Counted from the first letter of the stretch, positions 38,411 to 53,221 are shown. The stretch is DNA of 64,000 nucleotides from Candidatus Peribacter sp. (GCA_018652955.1 JABIBA010000013.1:232121-296120); one strand, 5' to 3'. Notes: a model not told the origin generated them from the letters alone. Numbers and translations are program-made.

Positions 38411-39004
38411 ATGCGTATCCTTGCTCTAGAGACCGATGCAGAGAAGATTAAGCAGCAGTGCTTATCTGAAGGGGAAAAGGAGGTACTTATGACGTATTAC
38501 CATGCTCTCAGCTTCTTCTTTGCTTCTTTGCGAGAGATCCTCTTTACGATCATTATCTTTATTGTAGGAATTTCTCTTTGGTACATCGGAGCACCGGTTT
38601 TGTGGGTATTAGGTGGTTTAACTGCAGTATGGTTCTTCTTCATCTTCTTTAATATCCTTAAGGCGTGGATCGATTGGCGATACGACTTTATCTTGGTGAC
38701 AACAGATAAATTAGTACTTGTAGATCAGACTTCTATTATTCACCAGAAGGTTAATCCGATTCATCTAGAAAACATCGGAAGCATTGCCGCAGAAACGCAG
38801 TATTGGAATATCTTTGGATTTGGAAAAATTGTTATTAATCTCAAAGAAGGAGAGGGGGGTCAGGCGATTACATTACATTTTGTACCAGATGCATCGGCTG
38901 TCGCATCAAAAATATCCCAGACTGTTACATACTATCAACGCTATGTGGATGGATCACAAGTTCCCCCTCAAGGCGGCGAGTTGAGCGGCGGACAGAATTT
39001 GTAG
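38411..39004 (+). CDS. membrane protein with bacterial PH-like domain
   Basis: 2 TM, then WRYDFILVTTDKLV, IFGFGKIVI. Confidence 0.7.
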   Translation: MRILALETDAEKIKQQCLSEGEKEVLMTYYHALSFFFASLREILFTIIIFIVGISLWYIGAPVLWVLGGLTAVWFFFIFFNILKAWIDWRYDFILVTTDKLVLVDQTSIIHQKVNPIHLENIGSIAAETQYWNIFGFGKIVINLKEGEGGQAITLHFVPDASAVASKISQTVTYYQRYVDGSQVPPQGGELSGGQNL

Positions 39005-41191
39005 TAGTTGCTCATCGGACGCATCTGTAATTACGTCGACTGATCCAAACTTCTGTAGGAGTTCTTTTTTGGTTTTCTCGCCGATACCATCGACTTCATC
39101 GAGTGCAGAACCGACCATTGTTTTTGCGATGCGTTTTTCTCTGTGGGCATTGGCAAACCTGTGCGCTTCGTTACGTAGTCTTTGGAGTAAGAAACTTGCT
39201 TGAGAATTGCTTGGAAGATCTACTGGGAAACTTTCCCCTGGCAAAAACACTTCTTCTTCACGTTTTGCGAGACCTATAACAGGGATATCAAGCTTTAGAT
39301 CTTTAAGCACTTCTACCACTGTGCTGAGTTGCCCCTTACCTCCATCAATAACTAGAAGATCCGGTCTTGATTTGAGAGAAAAGTCTTCTGTTGTTGACCT
39401 TCTGTGTAACACTGCTTTTTTACCTGGTTTAAAGTCATCAGGGATTGGCTTTGCAGACTTCGAAAGCCCATGGATAAAAGCAAGATCTTCAGAAATATCG
39501 CACTGTACATACCATTCAAGTTTTCCAGCTTTGTCTTCTAGCATGTCGAGAGCTGCATGTTGCAAATCACGATCTGTTGCGTGAAGAGTGAGCGTTCCGT
39601 AGATCATTTTTCCTTTTGAGGATTTCCTCGCGTCGAGTGTGAGGAGGTCTGCTTCTCCTTTAGAGATAACGATCACTTCTTCTCTCCAATCTTTTGGAAT
39701 TTCGAGGCGATCTTTTTGCGTCTTCGCCCAGAGGTCTCGTTCTTTCTTTTTAAGCCGAGATATACTGATAGATTCATCACGCTTTTCTAGATACTTCAGT
39801 CTTCTGCCTAGTACTTCTTTGAGTGCTTTATAGTCATCGACCTCTCCTTCTTTTACGGTGCGAACCGTAAAGGATCGATACTCTTTATTGGCAGGCTTTC
39901 CGTTTTTGATGACGACCATAGAGCCGACAGTTTCTGTTCCTCCGAGGTGTGAGATGTCGTACCCTTCGATACGTTTAAAGGTATTATCAGATCCTAGTAC
40001 TTCCTGAAGCTCTTTGAGGGCAGTGTCTATGTTTTTGGCAGCAGCTTCCCACTTTGCAAACTGCTGCGATACCTTTTGCTTCGCATTACTTTCTGCGAGG
40101 GCGAGTAGCTTAGATTTCTTTCCACGTTCTGGTGCGCGAATCTCCACTTGCCTCTCCTTGATCTGCGCGAGCCATGCTTCGAGCAACTCTTGGTCTTCAA
40201 TCTCTTCTTGAATCAATATCAAATCAGGAATATCTGTTTCGACTGAATAATATTGCGGCATGAGTTCTGCGAGTACAGCACCGATGTTGTCTGCCTCTCC
40301 AGCAAGTGCGATGCTACGCTCTTCTACAAGTCGTCCGTTACGTTCTCGCAGCACAACAACCTGTGCTTTTCCGCTTTGCAATGCGATTCCTATTGCGTCA
40401 GTGTTTTCTCGTGACGTATCAGAAACAACCTGTGGTACATCGAGTGATTCTATATACAAAAGAGTGTCACGGAGCTTTGCTGCTCTTTCGAATTTATTAT
40501 GCTTCGCTGCTGACTCCATCATGTCCTTAAGTGCAACAACTGCGTCAGTGTGATCTCCTTTTAAAAATCTCATTACTGCTTCTACCGATTCGTTGTATTG
40601 TTTTTCGGTAACATCTCCGACACACAGTCCGTTGCATTGTCCGATCTGATACTCGAGACATGCACGTTCTGGTTTTTTGTCGCGATTGAGTGCATCAGTA
40701 GAAAGAGCGCAGGCCCTAAAGCGAAATACGTCGTGCAATGTATTAAGTGTGCGCTTGATATTGTACGCACTGAGGTACGGTCCGAAGTATCTTGCATCAT
40801 CATCTTCCATTTGCCGTACAACACTTAAGACAGGGTAGGCATCTTTTGTGATACGCACATACACATAGTTTTTATCATCTTTCATCAGTACGTTGTATTT
40901 TGGCTTTACCTCTTTGATCATGTTTGTCTCGAGAATAAGAGCCTCCAGTTCGTTCTGGGTTATCGTGACGTCGTAGTCTGTAATGTGTTTTATAAGAGAG
41001 AGCTTCCATGGACCTAGTGCTTTGTCGGGTTCTTTTTGTACGTAACTCTTTAGTCTATTTTTTAAGTTCTTTGCTTTACCAATATAGAGCACATCGCCTT
41101 TGGCATTGAGCCAACGATAGATACCAGAGCTGGTTGGAGCTTTGGCGATCCGCTTACGAAGTTCTTCTAGATGTGTAGAGTTCTCAGGCAT
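38954..41191 (-). CDS. uvrC: excinuclease ABC subunit C with internal insertion
   Basis: GIY-YIG, FERAAKLRD, IEGYDISH, PDLLVIDGGKGQL, RNEAHRFA, HhH. Confidence 0.95.
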   Translation of the reverse strand: MPENSTHLEELRKRIAKAPTSSGIYRWLNAKGDVLYIGKAKNLKNRLKSYVQKEPDKALGPWKLSLIKHITDYDVTITQNELEALILETNMIKEVKPKYNVLMKDDKNYVYVRITKDAYPVLSVVRQMEDDDARYFGPYLSAYNIKRTLNTLHDVFRFRACALSTDALNRDKKPERACLEYQIGQCNGLCVGDVTEKQYNESVEAVMRFLKGDHTDAVVALKDMMESAAKHNKFERAAKLRDTLLYIESLDVPQVVSDTSRENTDAIGIALQSGKAQVVVLRERNGRLVEERSIALAGEADNIGAVLAELMPQYYSVETDIPDLILIQEEIEDQELLEAWLAQIKERQVEIRAPERGKKSKLLALAESNAKQKVSQQFAKWEAAAKNIDTALKELQEVLGSDNTFKRIEGYDISHLGGTETVGSMVVIKNGKPANKEYRSFTVRTVKEGEVDDYKALKEVLGRRLKYLEKRDESISISRLKKKERDLWAKTQKDRLEIPKDWREEVIVISKGEADLLTLDARKSSKGKMIYGTLTLHATDRDLQHAALDMLEDKAGKLEWYVQCDISEDLAFIHGLSKSAKPIPDDFKPGKKAVLHRRSTTEDFSLKSRPDLLVIDGGKGQLSTVVEVLKDLKLDIPVIGLAKREEEVFLPGESFPVDLPSNSQASFLLQRLRNEAHRFANAHREKRIAKTMVGSALDEVDGIGEKTKKELLQKFGSVDVITDASDEQLLQILSAAQLAALRGNL

Positions 41192-42735: not shown

Positions 42736-43776
42736 ATGCTCTCGAAAACACTTTCTGGGCTTATCCTCGTACTCACAATCCTTAGTGGAGTGGTGATCCT
42801 TTCTTCGGTACCGAAGTTTGAAGGAGAGGAAGCCCCTCGTCCTTCTCAGAAAGTTGCAGAGGAACGTCGCCGTCTTACATCTCTTCCTTCAGGGATTCTT
42901 TCTCGGTTTAGCTTGTTTCCGAACTCGCTCAAGAAGCCTATTCCACTTGCGGTCATGATTGAAAATCATGAGCACGCTCGTCCGTATCACATTGGAATCG
43001 ATCAGGCGTTAGTTATTCAGGAGTTCCTGGTTGAAGGATTTATTTCTCGGTTTGTTGCTATCATTGATGCTCGCAATCTTCCAAAGGAAATTGGCCCTGT
43101 TCGCAGCTTGCGTCCATATTTTCTCGACGCGATAAAGCCATGGTCACGCACCGTGTTTCATGCAGGTGGAAGCCCAGAAGCTCTTAAGCGTGTACAAGAA
43201 GGATCAGAGTTTTATGCACTGAACTTACTCTACTTTGATGATAAAAATGGTGAGTATGGTTCATTCCGTAAAGATGGTCCTCCTGCTCCTCATGATTTAT
43301 TTTTGAAGAAGAAAGTCTTTAAGAGTTTTCTTGAAGAAGTCCCAGAGCGATTACTCCAGCAGGTTTCATGGCCTCCATATACAATTGGGATCCCAGATGG
43401 CGGAGAGAATGCGAGTGACATCCGCGTAAACTTCTTTAATGCACTGCACAATGTCTCTTTTGAATACCTTCCCCTCGCACAAAAGTATCAACGAACAAAT
43501 GGAGGTGAGGTAAGCCCTGCACGACCGAACACTATTGCTATCATGGAAGTTCCTATCGATTACATTGGTGAATATGGACGACTATTTATGACGCTAGAGG
43601 GTTCTGGAAATGTGCAGATATTCCACTCTGGAAAAGTATGGGAAGGGCGATGGAGCAGAGGTGTAGATACGCAGAAATTTACGTTTACGAATGCCGATGG
43701 AGAAGAGATTCCATTTAAAGCAGGTCAATTGTGGATGATGGTGTTGCCGACACTAGAGCGAGTCTCGTACGAGTAA
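42736..43776 (+). CDS. DUF3048 (YerB-like) membrane-anchored protein
   Basis: PLAVMIENHEHARP, VEGFISRF, IGPVRSLR, HAGGSP. Confidence 0.85.
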   Translation: MLSKTLSGLILVLTILSGVVILSSVPKFEGEEAPRPSQKVAEERRRLTSLPSGILSRFSLFPNSLKKPIPLAVMIENHEHARPYHIGIDQALVIQEFLVEGFISRFVAIIDARNLPKEIGPVRSLRPYFLDAIKPWSRTVFHAGGSPEALKRVQEGSEFYALNLLYFDDKNGEYGSFRKDGPPAPHDLFLKKKVFKSFLEEVPERLLQQVSWPPYTIGIPDGGENASDIRVNFFNALHNVSFEYLPLAQKYQRTNGGEVSPARPNTIAIMEVPIDYIGEYGRLFMTLEGSGNVQIFHSGKVWEGRWSRGVDTQKFTFTNADGEEIPFKAGQLWMMVLPTLERVSYE

Positions 43777-46149
43777 TTATTCTCGTAGAAAGTTCGGGAG
43801 GATGAGTGGCTCTTTAAGGTCAGGAAGTTTTTCGATGGTCTCTAAATCTTCTAAGGCAACTTTTCCAATGTAGAGTCTCTGCAATGCGTTTCCGTCATCT
43901 ACAAACTTTTGTATAGCGAGCAGTCCTCGAAGATAGACGACGCTTTTGGTAAACCCACCAGCATCAGACGTATCTCCAAGTCCGCGTTTCATGGCAACGC
44001 TTTGTTGTACGGCTTTCTCTGGGGTGCATCCAAGTTCTGTTTCTAGATAGGTCCTTGTTTGCGCTAGGGAATGCTGCAAACTGTACTCTAGTCCAAGAAT
44101 ATTTTTATAGGGGTTGAAGTGTTTTTCGGAGTGAGGACTGAGTACTTCTTGTTCATTGTAGATGGCTAGTCCCTCTTGGGTATCAAGATAATCTGCACAT
44201 CCGCGTCGCAGAATTTGGTAGGATTGGTGACTTCCATTTTCTGATGTAAGCACGTGTGTTTCTATCTCATGTGCAATCAGAGAGGCTATATCACTTTCAC
44301 TAAATATGGCATCTTCACGAATGTATACTTTCTTTCCTCCAACAGTGATGCGAGCAATAAGCTTTGAGCGAACGCTCACCTGCCAATCATGTAACCCGTA
44401 TGCTTCTAGAGCTTTTTCAAAACGTTCTACTGCAGTAGCAGCAGTAAGTACTTCTTTTCCTTGGGGTTTTAGGTCACATGCAGCTCTAGTGGCTAATTTC
44501 TTTTGTGCGACTGTGATGAGTTTGTTTGTCGGCTTTCCAAAGAGTGCAACAGATGCTGCAGTGAACTGCTCGTTATGACCACGGGATTGCAGGAGGGTGA
44601 TACGTTTTAAGAGTTCCTTCCTCTTTTTTTCGAGAAGAGTTCCAAGAGCGGAGTCATCGGTAATCTTTTCGTGGAGTCGTTCTTTTGCATCATCTAAATC
44701 TGAACCAATCTCTGAGTAAGTAAATGTTGGATTGTAGAGCTCATCTTCGAGTAGTCGTTCCATTTCTTCCTCGAGGTTTAGTGGCTTGATGTGCTTAAGA
44801 AGTAGTAGGTCTTTATCAATTTTACTGAGCAGGCGATCGAGTGCTCGTACATCAGTCTTTTTTACCATACTTTTCTTTTCTGTTACCTTCATCTTCTTTG
44901 TTGGATCGATGAGGAATCCATTCAGATCCCTAGAACCAATTATCACTCTATGAGATCCCGTCTCTCCTGACTTCACCAGTGTTTGAATCTTCTTACCTCC
45001 CAGAGAGAATTTTACGCGATATAACCCCTCTGTTTCATCGGGTTCTGCTCCGTGCTTTTCTTGCAGCTCATCGATAAGCTTTTTGCTAAATGTCGTACGC
45101 TCTTCACCGCTATCGATTGTTGCTACAAGTTCAAAGGTAGAACCCTCTCCTAATGTAACTTGGATAGATTCCTCTAGTCCGAGTGTTGGCTTTCCATTTT
45201 CGAGGTCTGCGTCTTTCTTCTTTGTCTTGCTTCCAAATAAGTCCTGTCCGATACGTACTCCTTTTTCGGGTGACTCTACTGTAATTCCTTGCACACGATC
45301 TAGACGTGCCCTTAGAGGAGCAAGGTTTGCTATTTGTACCTGCAAACCAGCTCTTGCATTTACTTCGAGTAGCGCAGGTCCCATCTGTTCATCGATAGCG
45401 ATATCTACTGCGAGATATCCGATATTGGTAATTTGTTGTATCCGAGAACAAATTAACAAGATTTCATCCCAGTAGGGGATGCGGTGGCCTGCTATCTCAC
45501 CTCCGTGTGGTAGCTCTTCTATGATGTTGCGGTATTGCACACCATAGGTTGTTTCTCCTTTGGCAATGTCCAAACCTACTCCTATTCCTCCTAGGTGAAT
45601 ATTAGCCTTTCCGTCACTGTCTGCAGTTGGGATACGCACCATTGCCATCACAGGTACTAGGTTAAAGACAATGATACGAATGTCAGGCAGTCCTACAGGG
45701 CGAAACCGTGCAAAACAGCTATGTGGCTTTAGGATCTGTTCAAAGAAAGCAGTGTCCATCATTCCTTTTAGAGAAAACTTTCCATCGAGGATATCTTCGA
45801 TGTGCTCTCTTAACTCTTGGTCTGTAATTGGAGTTTTTCCATTGCGGAGGAACTCTCCTTTTTTATTACGACCACGCAATACAATAATTCCTTCACCACC
45901 AAATCCATGGTTTGGCTTAAGAACACATTCGTTGGGGAGCTGTGCAAAATCAAATTCCCACACTTGATCACGGTTTTCTATACGCCCGTAGAGCTTGGCT
46001 ACAGGTATGCCACGTGCAGCGAGATAGGCTTTTGTTCGTAGTTTGCTATCGGCTAGAGCTGTAGCTTTTTTCGGATTAAACGGCCTGATGTATAGCAGCG
46101 TGCGCGCATTTAACCCAAGTACGCCGCGATTGGAGAAAAAAGGAAACAT
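43777..46149 (-). CDS. fusion protein: alpha-L-glutamate-ligase-like ATP-grasp + RimB-like retropepsin + DUF1704/MATCAP-like metallocarboxypeptidase
   Basis: LGLNAR, KPNHGFGGEGI, DIRIIV, GKANIHLGG, LEVNARAGL; ATIDSG...IIGSRDLNGFLIDP; HEIETH, QEGLA, KRGL, GGFTK, LYIGKV. Confidence 0.85.
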   Translation of the reverse strand: MFPFFSNRGVLGLNARTLLYIRPFNPKKATALADSKLRTKAYLAARGIPVAKLYGRIENRDQVWEFDFAQLPNECVLKPNHGFGGEGIIVLRGRNKKGEFLRNGKTPITDQELREHIEDILDGKFSLKGMMDTAFFEQILKPHSCFARFRPVGLPDIRIIVFNLVPVMAMVRIPTADSDGKANIHLGGIGVGLDIAKGETTYGVQYRNIIEELPHGGEIAGHRIPYWDEILLICSRIQQITNIGYLAVDIAIDEQMGPALLEVNARAGLQVQIANLAPLRARLDRVQGITVESPEKGVRIGQDLFGSKTKKKDADLENGKPTLGLEESIQVTLGEGSTFELVATIDSGEERTTFSKKLIDELQEKHGAEPDETEGLYRVKFSLGGKKIQTLVKSGETGSHRVIIGSRDLNGFLIDPTKKMKVTEKKSMVKKTDVRALDRLLSKIDKDLLLLKHIKPLNLEEEMERLLEDELYNPTFTYSEIGSDLDDAKERLHEKITDDSALGTLLEKKRKELLKRITLLQSRGHNEQFTAASVALFGKPTNKLITVAQKKLATRAACDLKPQGKEVLTAATAVERFEKALEAYGLHDWQVSVRSKLIARITVGGKKVYIREDAIFSESDIASLIAHEIETHVLTSENGSHQSYQILRRGCADYLDTQEGLAIYNEQEVLSPHSEKHFNPYKNILGLEYSLQHSLAQTRTYLETELGCTPEKAVQQSVAMKRGLGDTSDAGGFTKSVVYLRGLLAIQKFVDDGNALQRLYIGKVALEDLETIEKLPDLKEPLILPNFLRE

Positions 46150-46155
46150 GAGATT

Positions 46156-47661
46156 CTATTCTTCTTGCAGGTGCTTAAAGACTTCTTGGAATCTAAAGTA
46201 TTCCACGAGCCGAAGACCTGTCCATTTACCAAGGAAGACATTGATGACTATCGTAATTAAAATCAGTTCAGGGTACGCAAGGATAAGGGATTGCAAGAAT
46301 GAAAGTTGAACGATGTAGACACAGAAGAGTGCAGCCATCACTGTTTCACCAATACCAAAGAGCGCTGCTTTCCAACCTTCCTCTGTTTTTACATTGAGGA
46401 AGCTCTCTGCAAGGGTAGACATAATAAGGAGTACAAAGATAGTGTCTCCAGAAAGTGTAATATCCTGATACGCTCCAATGCCAAGCAATACGAGTAGCGT
46501 TAAGCTCACTACCGTAAGAATAATGGCAACCTTTGGAATATACAGTAGGCGCCAGCGCTTCATTATTTGTCTGGTCGCATATCCTGTAACAAGGATAAAG
46601 ACGAGGAACAGAAGTCCTAGCCCCCACCCCAAAGCCAAGAAGCTTAGAGCAAGGATAGATGGCGTATACAAGCCAAAAGTAGTGATTCCAATGACCTGCT
46701 TAAAGAAGGCCAAGATGGTCGCAATAAGCGGCAACATCAGAAGAAGAATAACTGTCTGAGAAGACACTCCATGTGTCAGCATTGAGTTTACCAGTGACGA
46801 TAGAATGTTCCACGGTCGAATACCTGTTGTGGATTTATCAACAACAAGAAAATCGATATCGCGTTGTGTAAGTTCTACGATAAAGCTGTCGATATCTTCT
46901 GCAGACATGAGCGGGTTCACTGCTTCTTTACGTGTTACTAAAATTTGATGTGGTTGGATAACAGTAAACGGACCACCAGCAGTACGCGCCAATGTGCCGA
47001 GTCCACGGTCTGTAATAAGGACGATCGTTTGGTTGTGAATCGCTTCGAACCTATCAGGGTTTCCTTCGACTGCACGCATGAGTGCTTGTAATCCTTTGAC
47101 TCCTTCGGTCCAAAGCACAACAGCTTCTGCACCGTTGAGTGTCCCACTCTCTTCGCTAAGCATAGCAAAGATAGACTCCTCGACGCCTAAGGGAATTGTA
47201 GATTCTTCTGGTTGTAACAATCGCAAATAGACTCCCGCTTCTGCGGCAGCTACAAGGTGCAGGTTGAGCTTGTCGAGTGGAATAGAGCTATCTGCAATCA
47301 GTACGATTTTCCGATCGTAAACGGTAATAGATCTCGTCGTTTCTGTTACCTCTCTTACTCCATCAATAATTGTAGAAATACTGAGTCGCATAGTTACGAC
47401 ACCTGGTTTGTCGGGAGTGAATACCGCTTCTACAGATCTACTGATTGGCACAGTGCTTTCTCCTCTATACCAAATGTATTGGGTACTGTTCCCGAGTCCG
47501 TGACTTGCAGATGCATCGAGTACGATGGTTCGCCCTACTGGTACTTCGTCGGGTCCTGTAATAATTGCACTGAGCGGTTCTGCAGTTGGAGCCTCCTGTG
47601 CAAATGAGGAGAGGGGAAGTACAAGGAGAAGTGCTGCTATGGTTAACGTTCTAAATTGCAT
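46156..47661 (-). CDS. signal peptide + PKD/Ig-like domain + 7TM (7TM_transglut-like) membrane protein
   Basis: VGRTIVLDASAS...YIW; QVIGITTFGLYTP, LLYIPK, PELIL, GKWTGLRLVEYFRF. Confidence 0.8.
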   Translation of the reverse strand: MQFRTLTIAALLLVLPLSSFAQEAPTAEPLSAIITGPDEVPVGRTIVLDASASHGLGNSTQYIWYRGESTVPISRSVEAVFTPDKPGVVTMRLSISTIIDGVREVTETTRSITVYDRKIVLIADSSIPLDKLNLHLVAAAEAGVYLRLLQPEESTIPLGVEESIFAMLSEESGTLNGAEAVVLWTEGVKGLQALMRAVEGNPDRFEAIHNQTIVLITDRGLGTLARTAGGPFTVIQPHQILVTRKEAVNPLMSAEDIDSFIVELTQRDIDFLVVDKSTTGIRPWNILSSLVNSMLTHGVSSQTVILLLMLPLIATILAFFKQVIGITTFGLYTPSILALSFLALGWGLGLLFLVFILVTGYATRQIMKRWRLLYIPKVAIILTVVSLTLLVLLGIGAYQDITLSGDTIFVLLIMSTLAESFLNVKTEEGWKAALFGIGETVMAALFCVYIVQLSFLQSLILAYPELILITIVINVFLGKWTGLRLVEYFRFQEVFKHLQEE

Positions 47662-47681
47662 AGAGGTGGAGTGTAGGAGAA

Positions 47682-48029
47682 CTACTTTTTGTGCTTTCGC
47701 ATCATCTGAACGCGACCTTTTGCTTGGTGTAGTTCCTTATATTTCTTTAGCTGACCAGTAAGTTTTTCGACACACCGATCAATACCTTCAACGGCATCAG
47801 GCTTTCTGGATTCAGCTCTCAGTACTTTTTTTGGCAATGTTATCGTGACGGATACCTTCATGGCATCACGCTTTTTTTCCGTTTTCCTATTTTCTGCATC
47901 GATGCGTATAAGACTACTTTCATCTTTGATTCTTTTGCAGTACGTAGCCAATTTCCCAACTTTACGTGCTACGACAAGCAGCTCTTTATCGTTGTAGTGG
48001 AATCCTTTCTCGAAATGTTGAATATTCAT
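47682..48029 (-). CDS. hpf: ribosome hibernation factor / ribosome-associated inhibitor (HPF/RaiA)
   Basis: MNIQ..., VTITLPKKVLRAES..., IDRCVEKLTGQLKKYKE. Confidence 0.8.
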   Translation of the reverse strand: MNIQHFEKGFHYNDKELLVVARKVGKLATYCKRIKDESSLIRIDAENRKTEKKRDAMKVSVTITLPKKVLRAESRKPDAVEGIDRCVEKLTGQLKKYKELHQAKGRVQMMRKHKK

Positions 48030-48115
48030 TACAATTAGGGGGAATGAAGCAGAAATACACTCATATCATAGCATGTCTTAGGGGATAGGTAGCAAATTGG
48101 AAATTTAGGCTCAAA

Positions 48116-48126
48116 TCTGCTATAAT
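48116..48126 (+). promoter_or_regulatory. extended -10 promoter TCTGCTATAAT
   Basis: Identical 11-mer at 53243-53253; both followed by N3-TAGA. Confidence 0.65.
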
Positions 48127-48151
48127 AGTTAGAATTTTCAAAAACAAACAT

Positions 48152-49471
48152 ATGCCTCCTCCAGTATCTCCAAGTGGTGCTCCACTTACGCCAGACCAAA
48201 AAGCACAAGAGCTTAAAAACCTCTTAGTAAAATTGCGTACAGCACCTGCTGCACCAATTAATCCTGCGAGTGCTGAAATTAAGGAGCTGAAGAAAAAGAT
48301 CGAAGATACTAACCGAGTAGACATTCTTAAGGCATCTCAAGTTGAACTAGATTCATTGAAAGTTGAGGTTGAGGCGGCAAAGAATAATAAGGATATTATG
48401 GATGCTCTCGGTACAGAGAAGGTAAATCTTGAAAAGATGAATCTTGATATTACGACCCAAATTAATAAGACTAGATCTGCTGCCAGTACTGTTTTACTAA
48501 CAGACATCAAAGATGATGTTCTACAACTTGGTAAAGATTCCATTCCAGAAGAGAAAGGAGATGTGATCAGTATGGTTCAAGGACTAATGCTTAAGTTTAA
48601 TAAGCTTAAGTTGATGTTTGAGAAAATGACTACCTTTTCTGCCGCAGGAAAAGCAGAGATTGCTAAGAAAGAGAAACAGCTAGCTGTAGATGAATTCGGC
48701 ATGCTCGGACCACGTGGATTGCGTGATAAGTTTAAAAAGAAAGGAGCAGACTATGGTGTGAGTATCCGAAATGGTATTCGTGATAAGACTGCATTTAATA
48801 AGTATGTAGAGAAGTTTAAGAAAGGCGACATTCTGAATATCGATGAGTTTGTTGATCAAGAACTTGCTATTGCATCTCCTCAACTTAATGCTTCTACTGG
48901 CGCTCCAAAAGAAACTACCATGTATGGACTGTTGGCTCTTAAAGGACAAGAGACAAAGCTTGCATCAGCAATGGGTAAAGAAAGAGAATTGATGTATGAA
49001 GATGGTCTTGAGAAGTATGGTGTGAAGTTTGAGAATAATATTCTCACTGTACGAAACCTTGTTGATAGTAAGACGTATAACTACACACTGTCGACAGGTG
49101 CAGACGTACCTGCAGCAGCACTAGCGGCTGCTAAAAAGGCAGGTGCACCGGGAATATCTCCGGATGTCATGGGATTACTTGGTGCTTCTAAAGGAGTGAA
49201 ATTTACATCCGCAGACATAGAAGACCAAGGAGATGGTAAAAACGATAAGGTGATGGGATTTGCGTTCCAAGGTACTGCAGGCCCTATGGGCCTTTCGAAG
49301 CATCGTGGAAATGTCTCTCTCGATAACGCTACTCTTCGAAGCGTTCTTAAGGAGCTTGGTGCAGGAGATGCAACAGGACTAAAGAAACTCGTTGATCGTA
49401 AAATTGTTTCTAAAGGCATATTTGCCAAAATAAAAGGAGATATTGAATTCAAAATCGAAAAATCTAGCTAA
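48152..49471 (+). CDS. hypothetical coiled-coil protein (439 aa)
   Basis: Long ORF with its own promoter; no recognisable family. Confidence 0.8.
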   Translation: MPPPVSPSGAPLTPDQKAQELKNLLVKLRTAPAAPINPASAEIKELKKKIEDTNRVDILKASQVELDSLKVEVEAAKNNKDIMDALGTEKVNLEKMNLDITTQINKTRSAASTVLLTDIKDDVLQLGKDSIPEEKGDVISMVQGLMLKFNKLKLMFEKMTTFSAAGKAEIAKKEKQLAVDEFGMLGPRGLRDKFKKKGADYGVSIRNGIRDKTAFNKYVEKFKKGDILNIDEFVDQELAIASPQLNASTGAPKETTMYGLLALKGQETKLASAMGKERELMYEDGLEKYGVKFENNILTVRNLVDSKTYNYTLSTGADVPAAALAAAKKAGAPGISPDVMGLLGASKGVKFTSADIEDQGDGKNDKVMGFAFQGTAGPMGLSKHRGNVSLDNATLRSVLKELGAGDATGLKKLVDRKIVSKGIFAKIKGDIEFKIEKSS

Positions 49472-49483
49472 CCCTCTTTTACT

Positions 49484-52400
49484 ATGGCCCCTTCAGCAAT
49501 TGATCTTCTCAAGAGTAAACTCAAGATAGGGCTCGCAGTACCTGATGCCACTTTGAAGCATCAGAAATTACTAGATGCTATCAAAGAAGGGACACCAGGA
49601 TTTGATACACCTGTTCATCGTCAATCTCGAGTAGATCGTGCTCGGCTTGCTATTCAATTCATGAAACATGATGAGATTCGAACTGCAGGTATCCAAGTTA
49701 TCGATGAAGCGATTGCTAAAGTGGCAGCGGATAAGGCCAAAGCAAATAAAGAGAAATTAACTCCAGGAAAGACAGCTGCAGAGAAAACAGTGATAGATAA
49801 TAATATTGCGGCACTCGAAGCAGAGAAGCTTGAATATATTGGAGCACGTAAAGAAGCAGAGGCAGCAGTGCAGGCTGCAAAAGCTGCTGCAGCAAAACCA
49901 ACGCCAAAAAAACCAGTAACAAAGCCAGGTATTGTTGGTACTCTCGCAGGCGTTACTGATGCAGTATTACCGAAAGAGATGTCAGAGAAAATGAGCAAAG
50001 AAGCTAAAGCTCTAGCTGCAGTTGTTACAGGGGCTGCTCTTGTTGCAGGACTTGTGTGGTTGTTTAATCGTGGTAAGGATAAGGCAAAGTCTGCTGGTAA
50101 GACATTGTTGATTGCTGGAGGAGTGGTGCTTGCAAGTATTTTTGGTTTAAAGCTTTTTGCTGATCTTAGGAAATTCGGAAGTATCAATAAAATGATTGAT
50201 GCTAAATTGAAAGAGCGACAGGCAAAAAAGGAGCCATGGATAAAGTTCGGACTTACAGAAGATGATTACAAGAAAGCAGACGATATTTATCATGAAGAAG
50301 GCGAAGCTGGTAACGATAAAATTCGTGCATTCTTTGGATTAGCTCCGGGGGCAACCAATATAAAATACGAAGCGTACATGGAATTTATTCGAGGAAAGTA
50401 CGAAACTGTTGAAAAAAATGGCATTACATATGCTCGTGCGGAAGTGGCATTACAAAACTACGAAGATAATATTGGCACTGCTGTAAAAGAGTTGGCACGT
50501 TGGGTAAAAGATAACTATGTAAAGGTAGCCGTGGGTACGTACATCGCTTCGCGATTAGGTATTCTTCGTGCAATTCTTTCTGGTGCGGGTACTATTGCAT
50601 CTAAAGCTGGTCAACTAGCAAATGCCATGCGTAAGTTTGGATGGAAACATCCTATTATTGCTATTTTTGCTTTGGGAGGAGCTGTTATTGGTATTCGTAA
50701 GGCTATTTCAGCCGGAAAAGATGTCATGCTACCGGAGAACTTACCAATGTTTTCTACTGCTGTTGCAGCAAAGAAACCTGTATCACATGGCCCGTTGGAT
50801 GTTTCATTGGCAGGCCCTCTGGATACACTGAGTAAAAGTGTAGAGGAACTTGGTGTGATAACTGGGGACTTTGCAACATGGGTAGGTACTGAATTTATGG
50901 ATTTTGTGAATTACATTGATAAAAAGGCACCAGAATCATTCCGTAATAGTGACCCGGAGATTATCATTAGCAGAAACATGGCATGTATAGATGCTCTTCG
51001 TGATTATTTGGATCGCAGAAAAGGGAATGCACCCACAGCGAGAAAAAAAGTGAATGCAGGTAAAGGTGCTGACTATACAACTGCTATAGCACTTCTCGAT
51101 GCATACGAAAGCTCATTTATTTTGCATAGGTGTGAAAATGTTACTACCAATAAAGAGCCACAAGAAGCATATAAGAAGCTAGAGGGCGCTTTAGCAAAAG
51201 TGCAATTACTCGTAACGACAGAAGGGGATGTTGTGTATTGGCAGCCTGCTGATAAAAGCGAAGTGCGTCGTGCACTCTGCGTACATCCTTCTGTAACGGA
51301 TAAGGATAAGCTCCTAGAGCTTTCTAAACGGTTATTTCATGGAGAGGGTGATGATGTATATGTAGTAAATCGTGTTAAAGAAGAATTAGGAAAACAGCTA
51401 GGTAAGAATATGGATAAGCTCGAAGGTTTCCCTTTGGGCAGTAAGGGGTTTGCCATGATAATTGGAAATTTCTTGTACTTTATAGAGTTTGATCTCAGTA
51501 AAGGATTTATAGACTGGGAAAATATGAATAACTGGGCAAGAGCCCCGTTGAGTATCATGTTCTCAGAAGATGGTAAAGATCGTGATTGGCGAGAGTGGTC
51601 GGCAGATGTAGGGATTGGCGTTATGCATACGGCACTATTTGCATTGAGCGCAGGGACTCTTGGATTGCTAAAGCAGGCAGCTATTGGTGGTGGACCACTT
51701 CCAGGAAGAGGTAAGTTTAAAACTCTAAAGAAGATAGCAGTAAACATCACACCTGGTGTCTCTCATGCGAATGTTATAAAAAATACGTATCGTACATACT
51801 TTGATTTTAAGATGATGTATCACTTTCCTATACGAGGAAGGGGGTTCAACAATGTTTTCCAAGAAAGTGGATTGCGTCCTGAGTGGATACGTAGCATCGA
51901 AAATTCTGGTAACGGGTATTTGGCTAGATGGAAACTAAGACGCATTGCAAAGAAAGCCAATATTAGAGTAAAAGCTGCACGAACTGCACAGCAATTACGT
52001 ACTACGTTGCGTAATGGATTTGTTACTCGTTTAAACTTGTCAAATGCCAATGGACAAATAGGAGCTGATGGGGATTCTATGTACGATAATGTTCGTGATG
52101 CTTTTGCGCCAGGTGCGGATGCAGAAACGGATACAGTAGCAGAAGGATTGGAAACAGAAGAAGATAACGCACGCGTTGAAACATATAAACAAATGCTCGA
52201 TCAAGGAAGGTCTGTGACTGAAATGGTAAAGAACGGAGCACACGTAGGAGACTTACTCAAGGCAGATGCAGATCCTGATGAGACACTAAAGGCTGTACAG
52301 GGACTTGCTGACGAGGATCTCCGTGCTGAAGGACTAGATGCCTTGAAAGCTGCTGGAGTAGATACAACACCAAAACCAGTTGCACCAAAGCCAGCTGCAA

Positions 52401-53221
52401 AACCAACATTTACCGAGCAGCAAATTAAAGACACGGTGAAGGCAACAGAGTCAGGAAAACTTAGCCTCGATAAAAAAACACAGATCTATTCTGACTTGAT
52501 TAACAAGAACAAAATTCCTTATCAAAGCCTTATCAAGGCTGGTGCAGATCCAAAAGCTCTCATAAAAGCTGGAGTTAGTCCGGCAGAGGTAGCGCTTCAT
52601 ACGCCGAAGCCAGCACCTGCTAAACCTGCTGCATCAAAACCTGCAGCTACTAAACCTGCTGCGAAGCCACCAGCTCCTACTAAGCCTATTCCTGCTAAAC
52701 CTGCTGCACCAAAACCAGCTTCAACTGCTGCACCAAAGATTACTATTGCGCAATTGCAGAAGGAGCGAGGTGCGATAGAGAAGTCTATTACTGAAACAGT
52801 AGCAGAAGTGCGCCCTGCTAAAGGGCAAGCTCGAGCGAAGCTCCTTGCGAAGCTAGAGGCGGATTTCGAGGCACAGGCTAAGAACTTGGAGTCGCAAGTA
52901 GCACTGGATCCGAAATTGGATGCTAAGTTAGCTCCTCGTATCGCAGAGGCACGAGCCATGTCTGGAAAAATGGGTAAGCAATTAGCTTCACTTAAGAGCA
53001 GAATGTCTAAAAATGCTGCTTCTCAAAGTCCAAAAGGCCGTAAAGATAAGGTTTCGTCAAGGCAAAAAGGTACTGGTGATACAAGTGTTTCACCAGGTAC
53101 GCCTGGAGCTGTGCATGAAAACAGGTCAGGAACGGATACTGTGGTAGATCTACAAAACCCAAAAAATCAGGTCGGAAAACGTAAAAAAGGAGGCGGTGCT
53201 AACGTAAAGGTGGTTAAGTAA
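49484..53221 (+). CDS. large hypothetical protein (1245 aa) with several hydrophobic helices and Pro/Ala/Lys repeats
   Basis: TM-like segments around aa 175-225, 345-405 and 710-730; no signal peptide. Confidence 0.85.
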   Translation: MAPSAIDLLKSKLKIGLAVPDATLKHQKLLDAIKEGTPGFDTPVHRQSRVDRARLAIQFMKHDEIRTAGIQVIDEAIAKVAADKAKANKEKLTPGKTAAEKTVIDNNIAALEAEKLEYIGARKEAEAAVQAAKAAAAKPTPKKPVTKPGIVGTLAGVTDAVLPKEMSEKMSKEAKALAAVVTGAALVAGLVWLFNRGKDKAKSAGKTLLIAGGVVLASIFGLKLFADLRKFGSINKMIDAKLKERQAKKEPWIKFGLTEDDYKKADDIYHEEGEAGNDKIRAFFGLAPGATNIKYEAYMEFIRGKYETVEKNGITYARAEVALQNYEDNIGTAVKELARWVKDNYVKVAVGTYIASRLGILRAILSGAGTIASKAGQLANAMRKFGWKHPIIAIFALGGAVIGIRKAISAGKDVMLPENLPMFSTAVAAKKPVSHGPLDVSLAGPLDTLSKSVEELGVITGDFATWVGTEFMDFVNYIDKKAPESFRNSDPEIIISRNMACIDALRDYLDRRKGNAPTARKKVNAGKGADYTTAIALLDAYESSFILHRCENVTTNKEPQEAYKKLEGALAKVQLLVTTEGDVVYWQPADKSEVRRALCVHPSVTDKDKLLELSKRLFHGEGDDVYVVNRVKEELGKQLGKNMDKLEGFPLGSKGFAMIIGNFLYFIEFDLSKGFIDWENMNNWARAPLSIMFSEDGKDRDWREWSADVGIGVMHTALFALSAGTLGLLKQAAIGGGPLPGRGKFKTLKKIAVNITPGVSHANVIKNTYRTYFDFKMMYHFPIRGRGFNNVFQESGLRPEWIRSIENSGNGYLARWKLRRIAKKANIRVKAARTAQQLRTTLRNGFVTRLNLSNANGQIGADGDSMYDNVRDAFAPGADAETDTVAEGLETEEDNARVETYKQMLDQGRSVTEMVKNGAHVGDLLKADADPDETLKAVQGLADEDLRAEGLDALKAAGVDTTPKPVAPKPAAKPTFTEQQIKDTVKATESGKLSLDKKTQIYSDLINKNKIPYQSLIKAGADPKALIKAGVSPAEVALHTPKPAPAKPAASKPAATKPAAKPPAPTKPIPAKPAAPKPASTAAPKITIAQLQKERGAIEKSITETVAEVRPAKGQARAKLLAKLEADFEAQAKNLESQVALDPKLDAKLAPRIAEARAMSGKMGKQLASLKSRMSKNAASQSPKGRKDKVSSRQKGTGDTSVSPGTPGAVHENRSGTDTVVDLQNPKNQVGKRKKGGGANVKVVK
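52601..52738 (+). repeat. low-complexity (K)PA(A) peptide repeats
   Basis: TPKPAPAKPAASKPAATKPAAKPPAPTKPIPAKPAAPKPASTAAPK; recurring AAACCTGC at DNA level. Confidence 0.75.

Follow-up and report, generated by a model that had tools for sequence, protein, structure and literature searches.

A ligase-carboxypeptidase fusion with a Glu-tailed seven-helix membrane partner, a variant of the Rlo/Rim systems in a Candidatus Peribacter genome

Organisation of the locus

The window analysed here is a stretch of 64,000 nucleotides (nt) from the genome of Candidatus Peribacter sp. (GCA_018652955.1, JABIBA010000013.1:232121-296120), a marine, ultra-small bacterium of Peribacteria type (Patescibacteria). 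Two adjacent genes on its minus strand, 6 nt apart, encode a membrane partner of 501 residues (aa; upstream) and a fused enzyme of 790 aa (downstream), in which an ATP-grasp ligase, a retropepsin-like middle domain and a MATCAP-type carboxypeptidase are joined. This combination suggests a mark that is added to, and trimmed from, a protein tail. We describe the identities of the domains, the conservation of their catalytic residues, the linkage of the genes and the conservation and distribution of the partner's tail, from which we infer the probable enzymatic activities, the amino acid added, its acceptor and the physiological output.

43777..46149 (-): fused enzyme of 790 aa, ligase plus retropepsin-fold domain plus carboxypeptidase (open reading frame (ORF), Pfam/NCBIfam matches, homologs, bridging contigs)
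45226..46149 (-): RloC-type ATP-grasp ligase domain, aa 1-308 (PF14397, TIGR02291)
44890..45198 (-): predicted retropepsin-fold middle domain, aa 318-420, with D346-S-G at 45106-45114 (AlphaFold2 with Foldseek, PF05618 relatives)
43780..44841 (-): MATCAP/QEGLA-type Zn carboxypeptidase domain, aa 437-790 (PF08014, TIGR02421, HEIETH and QEGLA motifs)
46156..47661 (-): membrane partner of 501 aa with signal peptide, PKD domain, alpha/beta domain, 7TM_transglut domain and a tail ending in EE

A preliminary description of this DNA, made from the sequence alone, had proposed the three-domain anatomy of the 790-aa protein, which Pfam recovers at both ends and Foldseek, through a retropepsin fold, in the middle. 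All the motifs that it quoted are present in the translation where it had placed them: GLNAR (aa 12-16), KPNHGFGGEGI (aa 78-88), DIRII (156-160), KANIHLGG (181-188) and LEVNAR (261-266) in the ligase; ATIDSG (aa 343-348, nt 45106-45123) and IIGSRDLNGFLIDP (403-416) in the middle block; and HEIETH (aa 627-632, nt 44254-44271) and QEGLA (aa 658-662, nt 44164-44178) in the metallopeptidase.

The same description had allowed that the fusion might be an assembly chimera. Contigs from four independent runs, with 0 differences, span both internal domain junctions (X10 rec 1, X12 rec 6, X13 rec 14), and the junction between the partner gene and the fused gene is bridged likewise (X10 rec 2, X13 rec 15, X14 rec 23). 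Since independent contigs cross every junction, the fusion is not an assembly artefact, and clade-wide fused homologs also lead us to reject a chimera. Among the runs listed, near-identical copies of the stretch occur in at least 20 marine or seawater runs from 13 studies; no RNA run is among those listed. A word-index search, with 8000 candidates scored, returned 980 proteins at E<=0.001; each of the 120 matches listed (57-100% identity, 698-840 aa) contains both PF14397 and PF08014, and the organism names given among them are Peregrinibacteria/Peribacteria. A genome scan confirmed 212 relatives, from which 80 loci were retained, and all counts out of 80 below refer to these loci. The fused enzyme is single-copy in the host genome (1.2 Mb, 99.1% complete). 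As a separate observation, the tblastn match in one record (L069 3654-6342, named Peribacter sp. UBA6535) spans 2689 nt while its longest ORF is 618 aa, which suggests that this record contains a frameshift or an assembly error.

Of the characterised systems the nearest is rloABC of Pseudomonas aeruginosa and P. fluorescens, which consists of a secreted retropepsin cleaving runs of at least 8 Glu (RloA), an inactive-transglutaminase seven-transmembrane (7TM) protein (RloB) and a cytoplasmic ATP-grasp protein (RloC) (Lormand et al., mBio 2025, PMC12239564). Kinship with a Pseudomonas-type operon of separate ligase, 7TM and retropepsin genes, to which the preliminary description had pointed, is confirmed at the level of the rloABC families. 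We observed the canonical layout on a Legionella adelaidensis plasmid, in the order PF05618 (76.8 bits), PF14400 with PF14402, and TIGR02291 (436.1 bits, above the cut-off), and in an Aeromonas caviae record.

The ligase and carboxypeptidase domains

In the N-terminal domain, PF14397 (ATPgrasp_ST) covers aa 18-287 (2e-58; 198.3 bits against a gathering threshold of 31.4). TIGR02291, named 'alpha-L-glutamate ligase-like', matches at 3.9e-74 with 249.5 bits, below its curated cut-off of 314.2, and TIGR00768, which represents RimK proper, reaches 39.8 bits against a cut-off of 143.4. Judged by these profiles, the closest curated ligase families are alpha-L-glutamate ligases acting on peptide C-termini. 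With the TIGR02291 protein of the canonical Legionella operon the domain shares 40.9% identity, and with canonical RloC-type proteins 35-41%. Residue conservation was counted over 189 distinct family sequences, mostly named Peregrinibacteria/Peribacteria: K78, E137, D156, R158, K181, N183, H185, D249, E262, N264 and R266, to which we assign nucleotide/Mg and catalytic roles by family analogy, are conserved in 188-189 of the 189, and the ligase site of the window protein appears intact. For RloC, too, we know of no demonstration of ATP-dependent Glu ligation, and to our knowledge the substrate of the Rlo-system ligase is not known.

At the other end, PF08014 (MATCAP) covers aa 472-777 (9.8e-53; 179.8 bits against a gathering threshold of 27), TIGR02421, the proteobacterial 'QEGLA' equivalog, matches at 2.5e-57 with 194.8 bits, below its curated cut-off of 338.65, and the human MATCAP chain 7z5g is matched at E=0.0017, so that the kinship with the eukaryotic tubulin carboxypeptidase put forward earlier holds. 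H627, E628, H632, Q658, E659 and G660 are conserved in 188/189; their catalytic roles are presumed by family analogy, and the MATCAP-type site is apparently intact as well. Enzymes of the MATCAP family take off C-terminal Tyr or Glu as well as polyglutamylation; TMCP1/2 act on C-terminal Glu and polyglutamylation, and carboxypeptidase activity on acidic tails is demonstrated for human TMCP1/2 only (PMC10499314). With both sets of residues conserved in 188-189 of 189 sequences, a writer/eraser pair of ligase and carboxypeptidase, as first proposed, would be the most economical reading of the protein.

The middle domain

The middle domain has no Pfam match even at E<=10, aspartic-peptidase families included, and no PF05618 match was found anywhere in the 99%-complete host genome. 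Its profile, run against PDB sequences, returned no retropepsin, the best hit being a spermidine acetyltransferase at E 0.13, which is noise. An AlphaFold2 model built from a 57-sequence domain alignment (predicted local distance difference test score, pLDDT, 89.6) nevertheless gave 121 Foldseek matches at E<=0.001. These comprise the Ddi1 RVP domain (3s8i, 1.5e-5) and RloA2/RloA of Pseudomonas (9g59/9g58, ~3e-5, TMq 0.58-0.61); the DUF785 protein 2pma (TMq 0.57) and HIV protease are matched as well. The model therefore predicts a retropepsin fold.

An exhaustive search of 50%-identity representatives gave 3418 matches at E<=0.001, the best 150 of which were sorted with three domain hidden Markov models: 47 have all three domains, 36 have ligase and MATCAP with an unrecognised spacer of ~115 aa, and 38 have ligase and middle domain, the remainder being 5 with middle domain and MATCAP, 18 with ligase only and 6 with MATCAP only. 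A textbook K[IV]DTGAxR[ST]SI site is present in 12 of the 22 two-domain forms with an aligned motif column. Because DTGA-bearing homologs pass the PF05618 threshold of 27 bits (the three-domain protein P0262 at 37.3 bits, P0321 at 31.1 and P0313 at 29.7), the fold call is correct, and the middle domain of the window protein is, on sequence grounds, homologous to PF05618 domains.

The preliminary description went further, taking the middle domain for an active endopeptidase, so that tags would be removed by endo- as well as by exo-proteolysis. D346-S-G does stand, in the window protein, at the structurally expected place, followed by an xxRTxF-helix pattern, in a domain whose predicted fold matches RloA and Ddi1; G405, R407 and D408 are invariant. 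Relatives of family f45 retain IDTG, and a natural ligase-fused retropepsin, the RimBK hybrid of Desulfotalea psychrophila, is described as proteolytically active (PMC11957791). Against this, the D346 column holds Asp in only 10/189 sequences (Ala in 89, Ser in 47), and D-S-G in 7/189, all close kin of the window protein, which makes endo-proteolysis doubtful. In a midpoint-rooted FastTree tree built from 247 proteins, the D-S-G group lies inside a series of at least 11 successive sister groups that lack the Asp (IASD, IAGD, IAPE/D); its nearest neighbour, L005, carries INSG (N-S-G), and 'ASD' is two single-base changes away from 'DSG'. We therefore read the D-S-G of the window, from this nesting, as a derived, weakly constrained and secondary state. 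Moreover, RloA K46, two residues before the Asp, coordinates poly-Glu (PMC12239564), and the window protein has Thr at that position, as well as Glu after the Gly where Ala is usual. The Pfam aspartic-peptidase match is also absent. Thus we consider a second, endo-proteolytic eraser quite improbable. Most likely, to judge from the clade's sequences, catalysis has been lost across the clade and the domain is a non-catalytic module, probably for binding or dimerisation; the invariant residues, D415 among them, and conserved basic residues leave room for the binding of acidic peptides.

The membrane partner and its Glu tail

47599..47661 (-): signal peptide, aa 1-21 (...LPLSSFA/QE), read directly from the sequence, with a hydrophobic segment at aa 3-21
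47302..47580 (-): PKD-type beta-sandwich ectodomain, aa ~28-120 (AlphaFold2, Foldseek, PKD_4)
46786..47301 (-): second ectodomain of alpha/beta fold and no recognised family, aa ~121-292, ~170 aa (strand/helix alternation in the AlphaFold2 model)
46213..46785 (-): 7TM_transglut domain, aa 293-483 (PF14402; seven hydrophobic segments; K/R-rich loop 360-377)
46159..46212 (-): predicted cytoplasmic tail RLVEYFRFQEVFKHLQEE, whose last two codons (46159-46164) encode Glu-Glu

The N-terminus of the partner reads as a Sec signal peptide. AlphaFold2 modelled aa 24-292 (pLDDT 88.3) as a beta-sandwich followed by a second, alpha/beta domain. Foldseek matched the sandwich to the PKD domains of ColG/ColH (TMt 0.68-0.78; for ColG 2y72, TMt 0.78, root-mean-square deviation 2.8 A, 25% identity), and PKD_4, at E=0.052 in the window's partner, matches at 1e-7 to 1e-21 in 8/8 relatives tested. 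For the alpha/beta domain there was no clean PDB match with Foldseek, no Pfam match and no usable ESM Atlas match. PF14402 covers aa 293-494 (4.9e-25; 88.9 bits against a cut-off of 25), and NF052267 (RloB) matches the C-terminal part only (1.4e-12; 47.1 bits against a cut-off of 900). The partner gene 6 nt upstream was thus rightly described as encoding a signal peptide, a PKD/Ig-like domain and a 7TM region. It had also been noted that an Ig-like domain stands where an inactive transglutaminase is usual; this is correct, as PF14400 was not found in the partner by a Pfam search, but incomplete, the ectodomain being PKD plus the ~170-aa alpha/beta domain that had been missed. Since PKD_4, ~170 aa and 7TM follow one another in 8/8 phylum-wide relatives tested, this ectodomain is what the cassette normally carries throughout the phylum. 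A tblastn search of plasmids with the 7TM region gave no match. Prediction of a complex between the ATP-grasp domain (aa 1-312) and the 7TM region with its tail (aa 293-501) gave scores of 0.25 and 0.22, where the mark is 0.32, which speaks neither for binding nor against it.

The tail is predicted, from hydropathy and the positive-inside rule, to lie on the cytoplasmic side. The C-terminal residue is Glu in 78/78 partners (77 loci plus the window), with one terminal Glu in 7, two in 53, three in 16 and four in 2. At least two terminal Glu thus occur in 71/78 partners, against 10/860 background ORFs of at least 200 aa from the same loci. EE is retained in 11/11 further members sampled from the window's class, with diverged preceding residues (...EDNTEE, ...LRHIEE, ...LQKEEEE). 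Beyond the clade, 52 genomes from across the phylum were compared, 30 chosen as best 7TM matches, 12 for a fused enzyme and 10 for a stand-alone MATCAP, a fused enzyme being defined in this sample as a MATCAP match within an open frame of at least 670 aa. EE tails were found in 13/19 genomes with a fused enzyme and in 0/33 without, one of the 33 ending in a single Glu. The idea of a universal Glu tail on 7TM partners was considered and is weakened: it holds in the clade and fails phylum-wide and in canonical operons.

Two further observations concern tail and middle domain together. The fused enzymes of f45 (L139-L141, L145, L146) keep IDTG and have non-Glu tails. L143, L144 and the window's class have EE tails, and the three EE-tail lineages all lack D[ST]G. 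This hints, from very few independent lineages, that an active endopeptidase and an encoded Glu tail may exclude each other. Because the three EE lineages are without D[ST]G and f45 has IDTG without EE, it also hints that endo-cleavage gave way to an encoded Glu primer combined with exo-trimming.

Gene linkage and distribution

The 7TM gene lies directly upstream of the fused gene, on the same strand, in 77/80 loci, the 3 misses being contig ends, and directly before the ligase gene in 27/27 phylum-wide loci with room for it. One further gene may belong to the same transcription unit:

47682..48029 (-): gene of the ribosome hibernation factor HPF/YfiA, lying 20 nt ahead of the 7TM gene (PF02482 1e-09, TIGR00741 4.4e-09)

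An HPF homolog is found upstream on the same strand in 50 of the 67 related loci with room, often overlapping the 7TM gene by 4 nt, and HPF is the probable first gene of an HPF-7TM-enzyme operon. General synteny is likewise high (L25 in 55/80 loci, glycosyltransferase GT2 in 48/80, UvrC in 41/80), and the position of HPF may reflect functional coupling to translation or clade synteny alone. In a scan of 43500-48400, promoter-like sites numbered 11, against 7.2 +/- 2.8 expected, and none is informative for the minus-strand operon; the terminator-like sites fall inside genes.

A survey of the architecture shows that the fusion is clade-wide, with at least 189 distinct homologs. Among 301 Patescibacteria genomes sampled, the 7TM family occurs in 99, MATCAP in 59 and the fused form in ~20; the 7TM family is also present in 56/59 MATCAP-positive genomes, against 99/301 overall. 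In genomes of family f24 (G237, G191, G174, G070, G017 and others) the 7TM_transglut frames are short, ~223-236 aa, and therefore without ectodomain, and a stand-alone MATCAP gene (~390 aa) lies ~6 kb off on the same contig in 14/14 sampled genomes.

Discussion

The locus shares with rloABC the same three families (PF05618, PF14402 and PF14397/TIGR02291) and the order of 7TM before ligase. It differs in that the retropepsin, separate and secreted in rloABC, is here an internal, cytoplasmic domain placed after the ligase and decayed in the clade, and in that a MATCAP carboxypeptidase domain is added to the enzyme. The partner has PKD and alpha/beta domains where the Legionella partner has PF14400, it ends in EE, unlike the canonical RloB-type proteins (0/2), and the window proteins score below the curated cut-offs of TIGR02291 and NF052267.

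RimK extends the C-terminal Glu of ribosomal protein S6 and RimB trims the S6 tail (Little et al., JBC 2025, PMC11957791). This second system resembles ours in pairing a relative of the ATP-grasp alpha-L-glutamate ligases with a peptidase of the retropepsin type, joined on a single chain in RimBK, and its model acceptor is a protein whose C-terminus ends in Glu-Glu. In contrast to RimBK, the window protein has the reverse order, ligase then retropepsin, and its ligase is of the RloC type and not RimK proper; in contrast to RimK/RimB, the system has a third, MATCAP domain and a membrane partner. S6 of the host genome ends in ...SDDDLDI, not in Glu, and S6 was rejected as the acceptor for this reason. 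The host S6 (L083 1240-1812 (-), which is G000:C9) is 190 aa long, much longer than a typical bacterial S6, with a long Lys/Glu-rich C-terminal extension.

In the tubulin cycle, in which TTL/TTLL ligases act against MATCAP/TMCP (PMC10499314), ligase and PF08014 carboxypeptidase would oppose each other on an acidic tail, as they may do here. The candidate tail ends in ...QEE and was compared with that of tubulin. Detyrosinated alpha-tubulin ends in ...GEE. The differences are that both activities would reside in one polypeptide, that the ligase is RimK/RloC-like and not of the TTL family, and that the candidate substrate is a 7TM protein. The resemblance is thus, by analogy, one of mechanism, only the carboxypeptidase domain sharing a family.

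Proteobacteria, too, link a QEGLA/MATCAP peptidase genetically with an ATP-grasp ligase: annotated records (two loci inspected) contain operons of N-formylglutamate amidohydrolase (FGase), QEGLA and GshB-like ATP-grasp genes. Unlike in the window, ligase and peptidase have genes of their own, the ligase belongs to the glutathione-synthetase type (PF02955), the FGase takes the place of the retropepsin, and there is no 7TM partner in the two loci. The proteobacterial QEGLA proteins measure 617-663 aa (L081 5005-6996; L082 4217-7914). Vibrio sp. HDW18 has the FGase domain in the N-terminal part of the MATCAP protein itself, whereas Mesorhizobium encodes it on its own, ahead of the genes for QEGLA and the GshB-like ATP-grasp. 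In Photobacterium damselae, a gene annotated as glutathione synthase GshB and a QEGLA gene have consecutive locus tags and are described as induced at low salt (PMC10308900).

The locus is a fused variant of the Rlo/Rim systems. New in it are the joining of three domains in one protein, an internal retropepsin that has decayed, the ectodomain with PKD and an EE tail specific to the clade. Literature searches found no paper on a ligase-MATCAP fusion, although the distribution figures in the Rlo/RimB supplements might list fused forms.

We tentatively favour, at somewhat short of an even chance, a fused cytoplasmic system of the Rlo/Rim type in which ligase and carboxypeptidase set a reversible mark on an acidic tail. 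The ligase would add residues, Glu by family analogy, to a C-terminal carboxylate, and the carboxypeptidase would take the added residues off singly. The length of the acidic tail would then be a reversible mark, set at the membrane. As acceptor, the best candidate would be the partner's cytoplasmic -EE tail, comparable to the -EE of S6 for RimK and the -GEE(Y) of tubulin for TTL/MATCAP.

Several observations weigh against this reading. Six fused enzymes stand beside non-Glu tails, five in f45 (KSA, KSS, HRA) and one in G024 (KSH). All six have intact ligase and MATCAP residues and the five of f45 keep IDTG; an EE tail is therefore not needed for an intact enzyme, and the tail can only be called a candidate acceptor. 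Of the 30 first-sampled phylum-wide 7TM proteins, 26 are not Glu-terminal, nor are the partners in the stand-alone-MATCAP lineages f24 and f57 (10/10) or the two canonical RloB-type proteins (Legionella ...AKARS, Aeromonas ...GKDK; 0/2). With non-Glu 7TM partners in canonical operons and in most of the phylum-wide sample, the link between 7TM and ligase predates the tail; their partnership is independent of it and has to rest on something else. The sampled kin are not independent, EE tails occurring in about three lineages (the window's class, f25 and f48). Finally, the Pseudomonas protease acts in the periplasm (PMC12239564), which points to an exported product and not to a cytoplasmic tail.

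Alternatively, as may be the case in Rlo, the ligase would make a free poly-alpha-glutamate or other short peptide, which the 7TM protein would export or regulate and whose length MATCAP, together with the retropepsin where active, would limit, or which it would recycle; in that case the EE tail, gained in the clade, would serve only for docking or priming. The 7TM-ATP-grasp pair is kept in lineages without Glu tails, canonical operons among them, and intact-site fused enzymes do occur beside non-Glu tails. RimK also makes free poly-Glu, a synthesis that RimB stimulates (PMC11957791). Furthermore, Pseudomonas genetics places RloB/RloC upstream of the periplasmic proteases, loss of rloB or rloC suppressing the defects of a triple RloA-protease mutant (PMC12239564). 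However, terminal Glu in all 78 loci and EE in all 11 class members, confined to genomes with a fused MATCAP, would go unexplained. Both degrading domains are cytoplasmic, and the host has no Rlo-type secreted peptidase, as judged by the lack of a PF05618 match. We regard a free polymer as possible, while leaning against it.

The enzyme might instead modify the envelope, the ATP-grasp domain amidating a carboxylate of the cell wall or of a surface glycan with an amino acid, MATCAP acting as a stem-peptide carboxypeptidase, and the 7TM/PKD protein handling the substrate. The Pfam name of the ATP-grasp family is 'sugar-transfer associated', PKD-type ectodomains are common in surface proteins, and rlo mutants have cell-shape, osmotic and beta-lactam phenotypes (PMC12239564). 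The GT2 glycosyltransferase gene is syntenic in more than half of the loci; it lies, however, on the other strand, behind two unrelated genes and amid general synteny. The nearest curated ligase families act on peptide C-termini, RloA and RimB are known to act on poly-Glu peptides, and the EE tail would again have no explanation. We find an envelope role very improbable.

Returning to the reversible tail mark, a more specific form of it, which we rate as unlikely, is a bacterial 'tail code': the bifunctional enzyme would lengthen and shorten the -EE tail of a PKD-bearing seven-helix receptor, while the dead retropepsin holds the tail. If this were true, an envelope signal would be stored in the length of the tail or passed on through it, possibly to translation, as a ribosome hibernation factor heads the operon, and the system would be a prokaryotic counterpart, possibly the evolutionary source, of the TTL/TTLL-MATCAP tubulin cycle.

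The question is of wider interest, as the Rlo system influences how Pseudomonas tolerates osmotic stress, forms biofilms and responds to antibiotics. The fused variant places the predicted opposing activities in one soluble protein, and the 18-residue tail ending in EE is a concrete, synthesisable candidate substrate, so that the chemistry is directly testable in vitro. Linkage of MATCAP-type carboxypeptidases to ATP-grasp ligases, as genes or fusions, in about one fifth of the sampled Patescibacteria (59/301) also bears on the origin of the tubulin-tail enzymes.

Other features of the region

Downstream, a DUF3048 gene (42736-43776 (+)) runs towards the fused gene and directly abuts it, the stop codon of the DUF3048 gene ending at 43776 and that of the fused gene starting at 43777; a DUF3048 homolog is found downstream in 35/80 loci. 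On the other side, two divergent, Ala/Lys/Pro-rich ORFs, 48152-49471 (+) of 439 aa and 49484-53221 (+) of 1245 aa, contain low-complexity AKP-type stretches and hydrophobic segments, and have homologs in 1/80 and 4/80 loci, respectively. Further downstream of the fused gene, a UvrC-like ORF at 38954-41191 (-) encodes 745 aa; UvrC is typically ~600 aa long, and the ORF may contain a mid-protein insertion.

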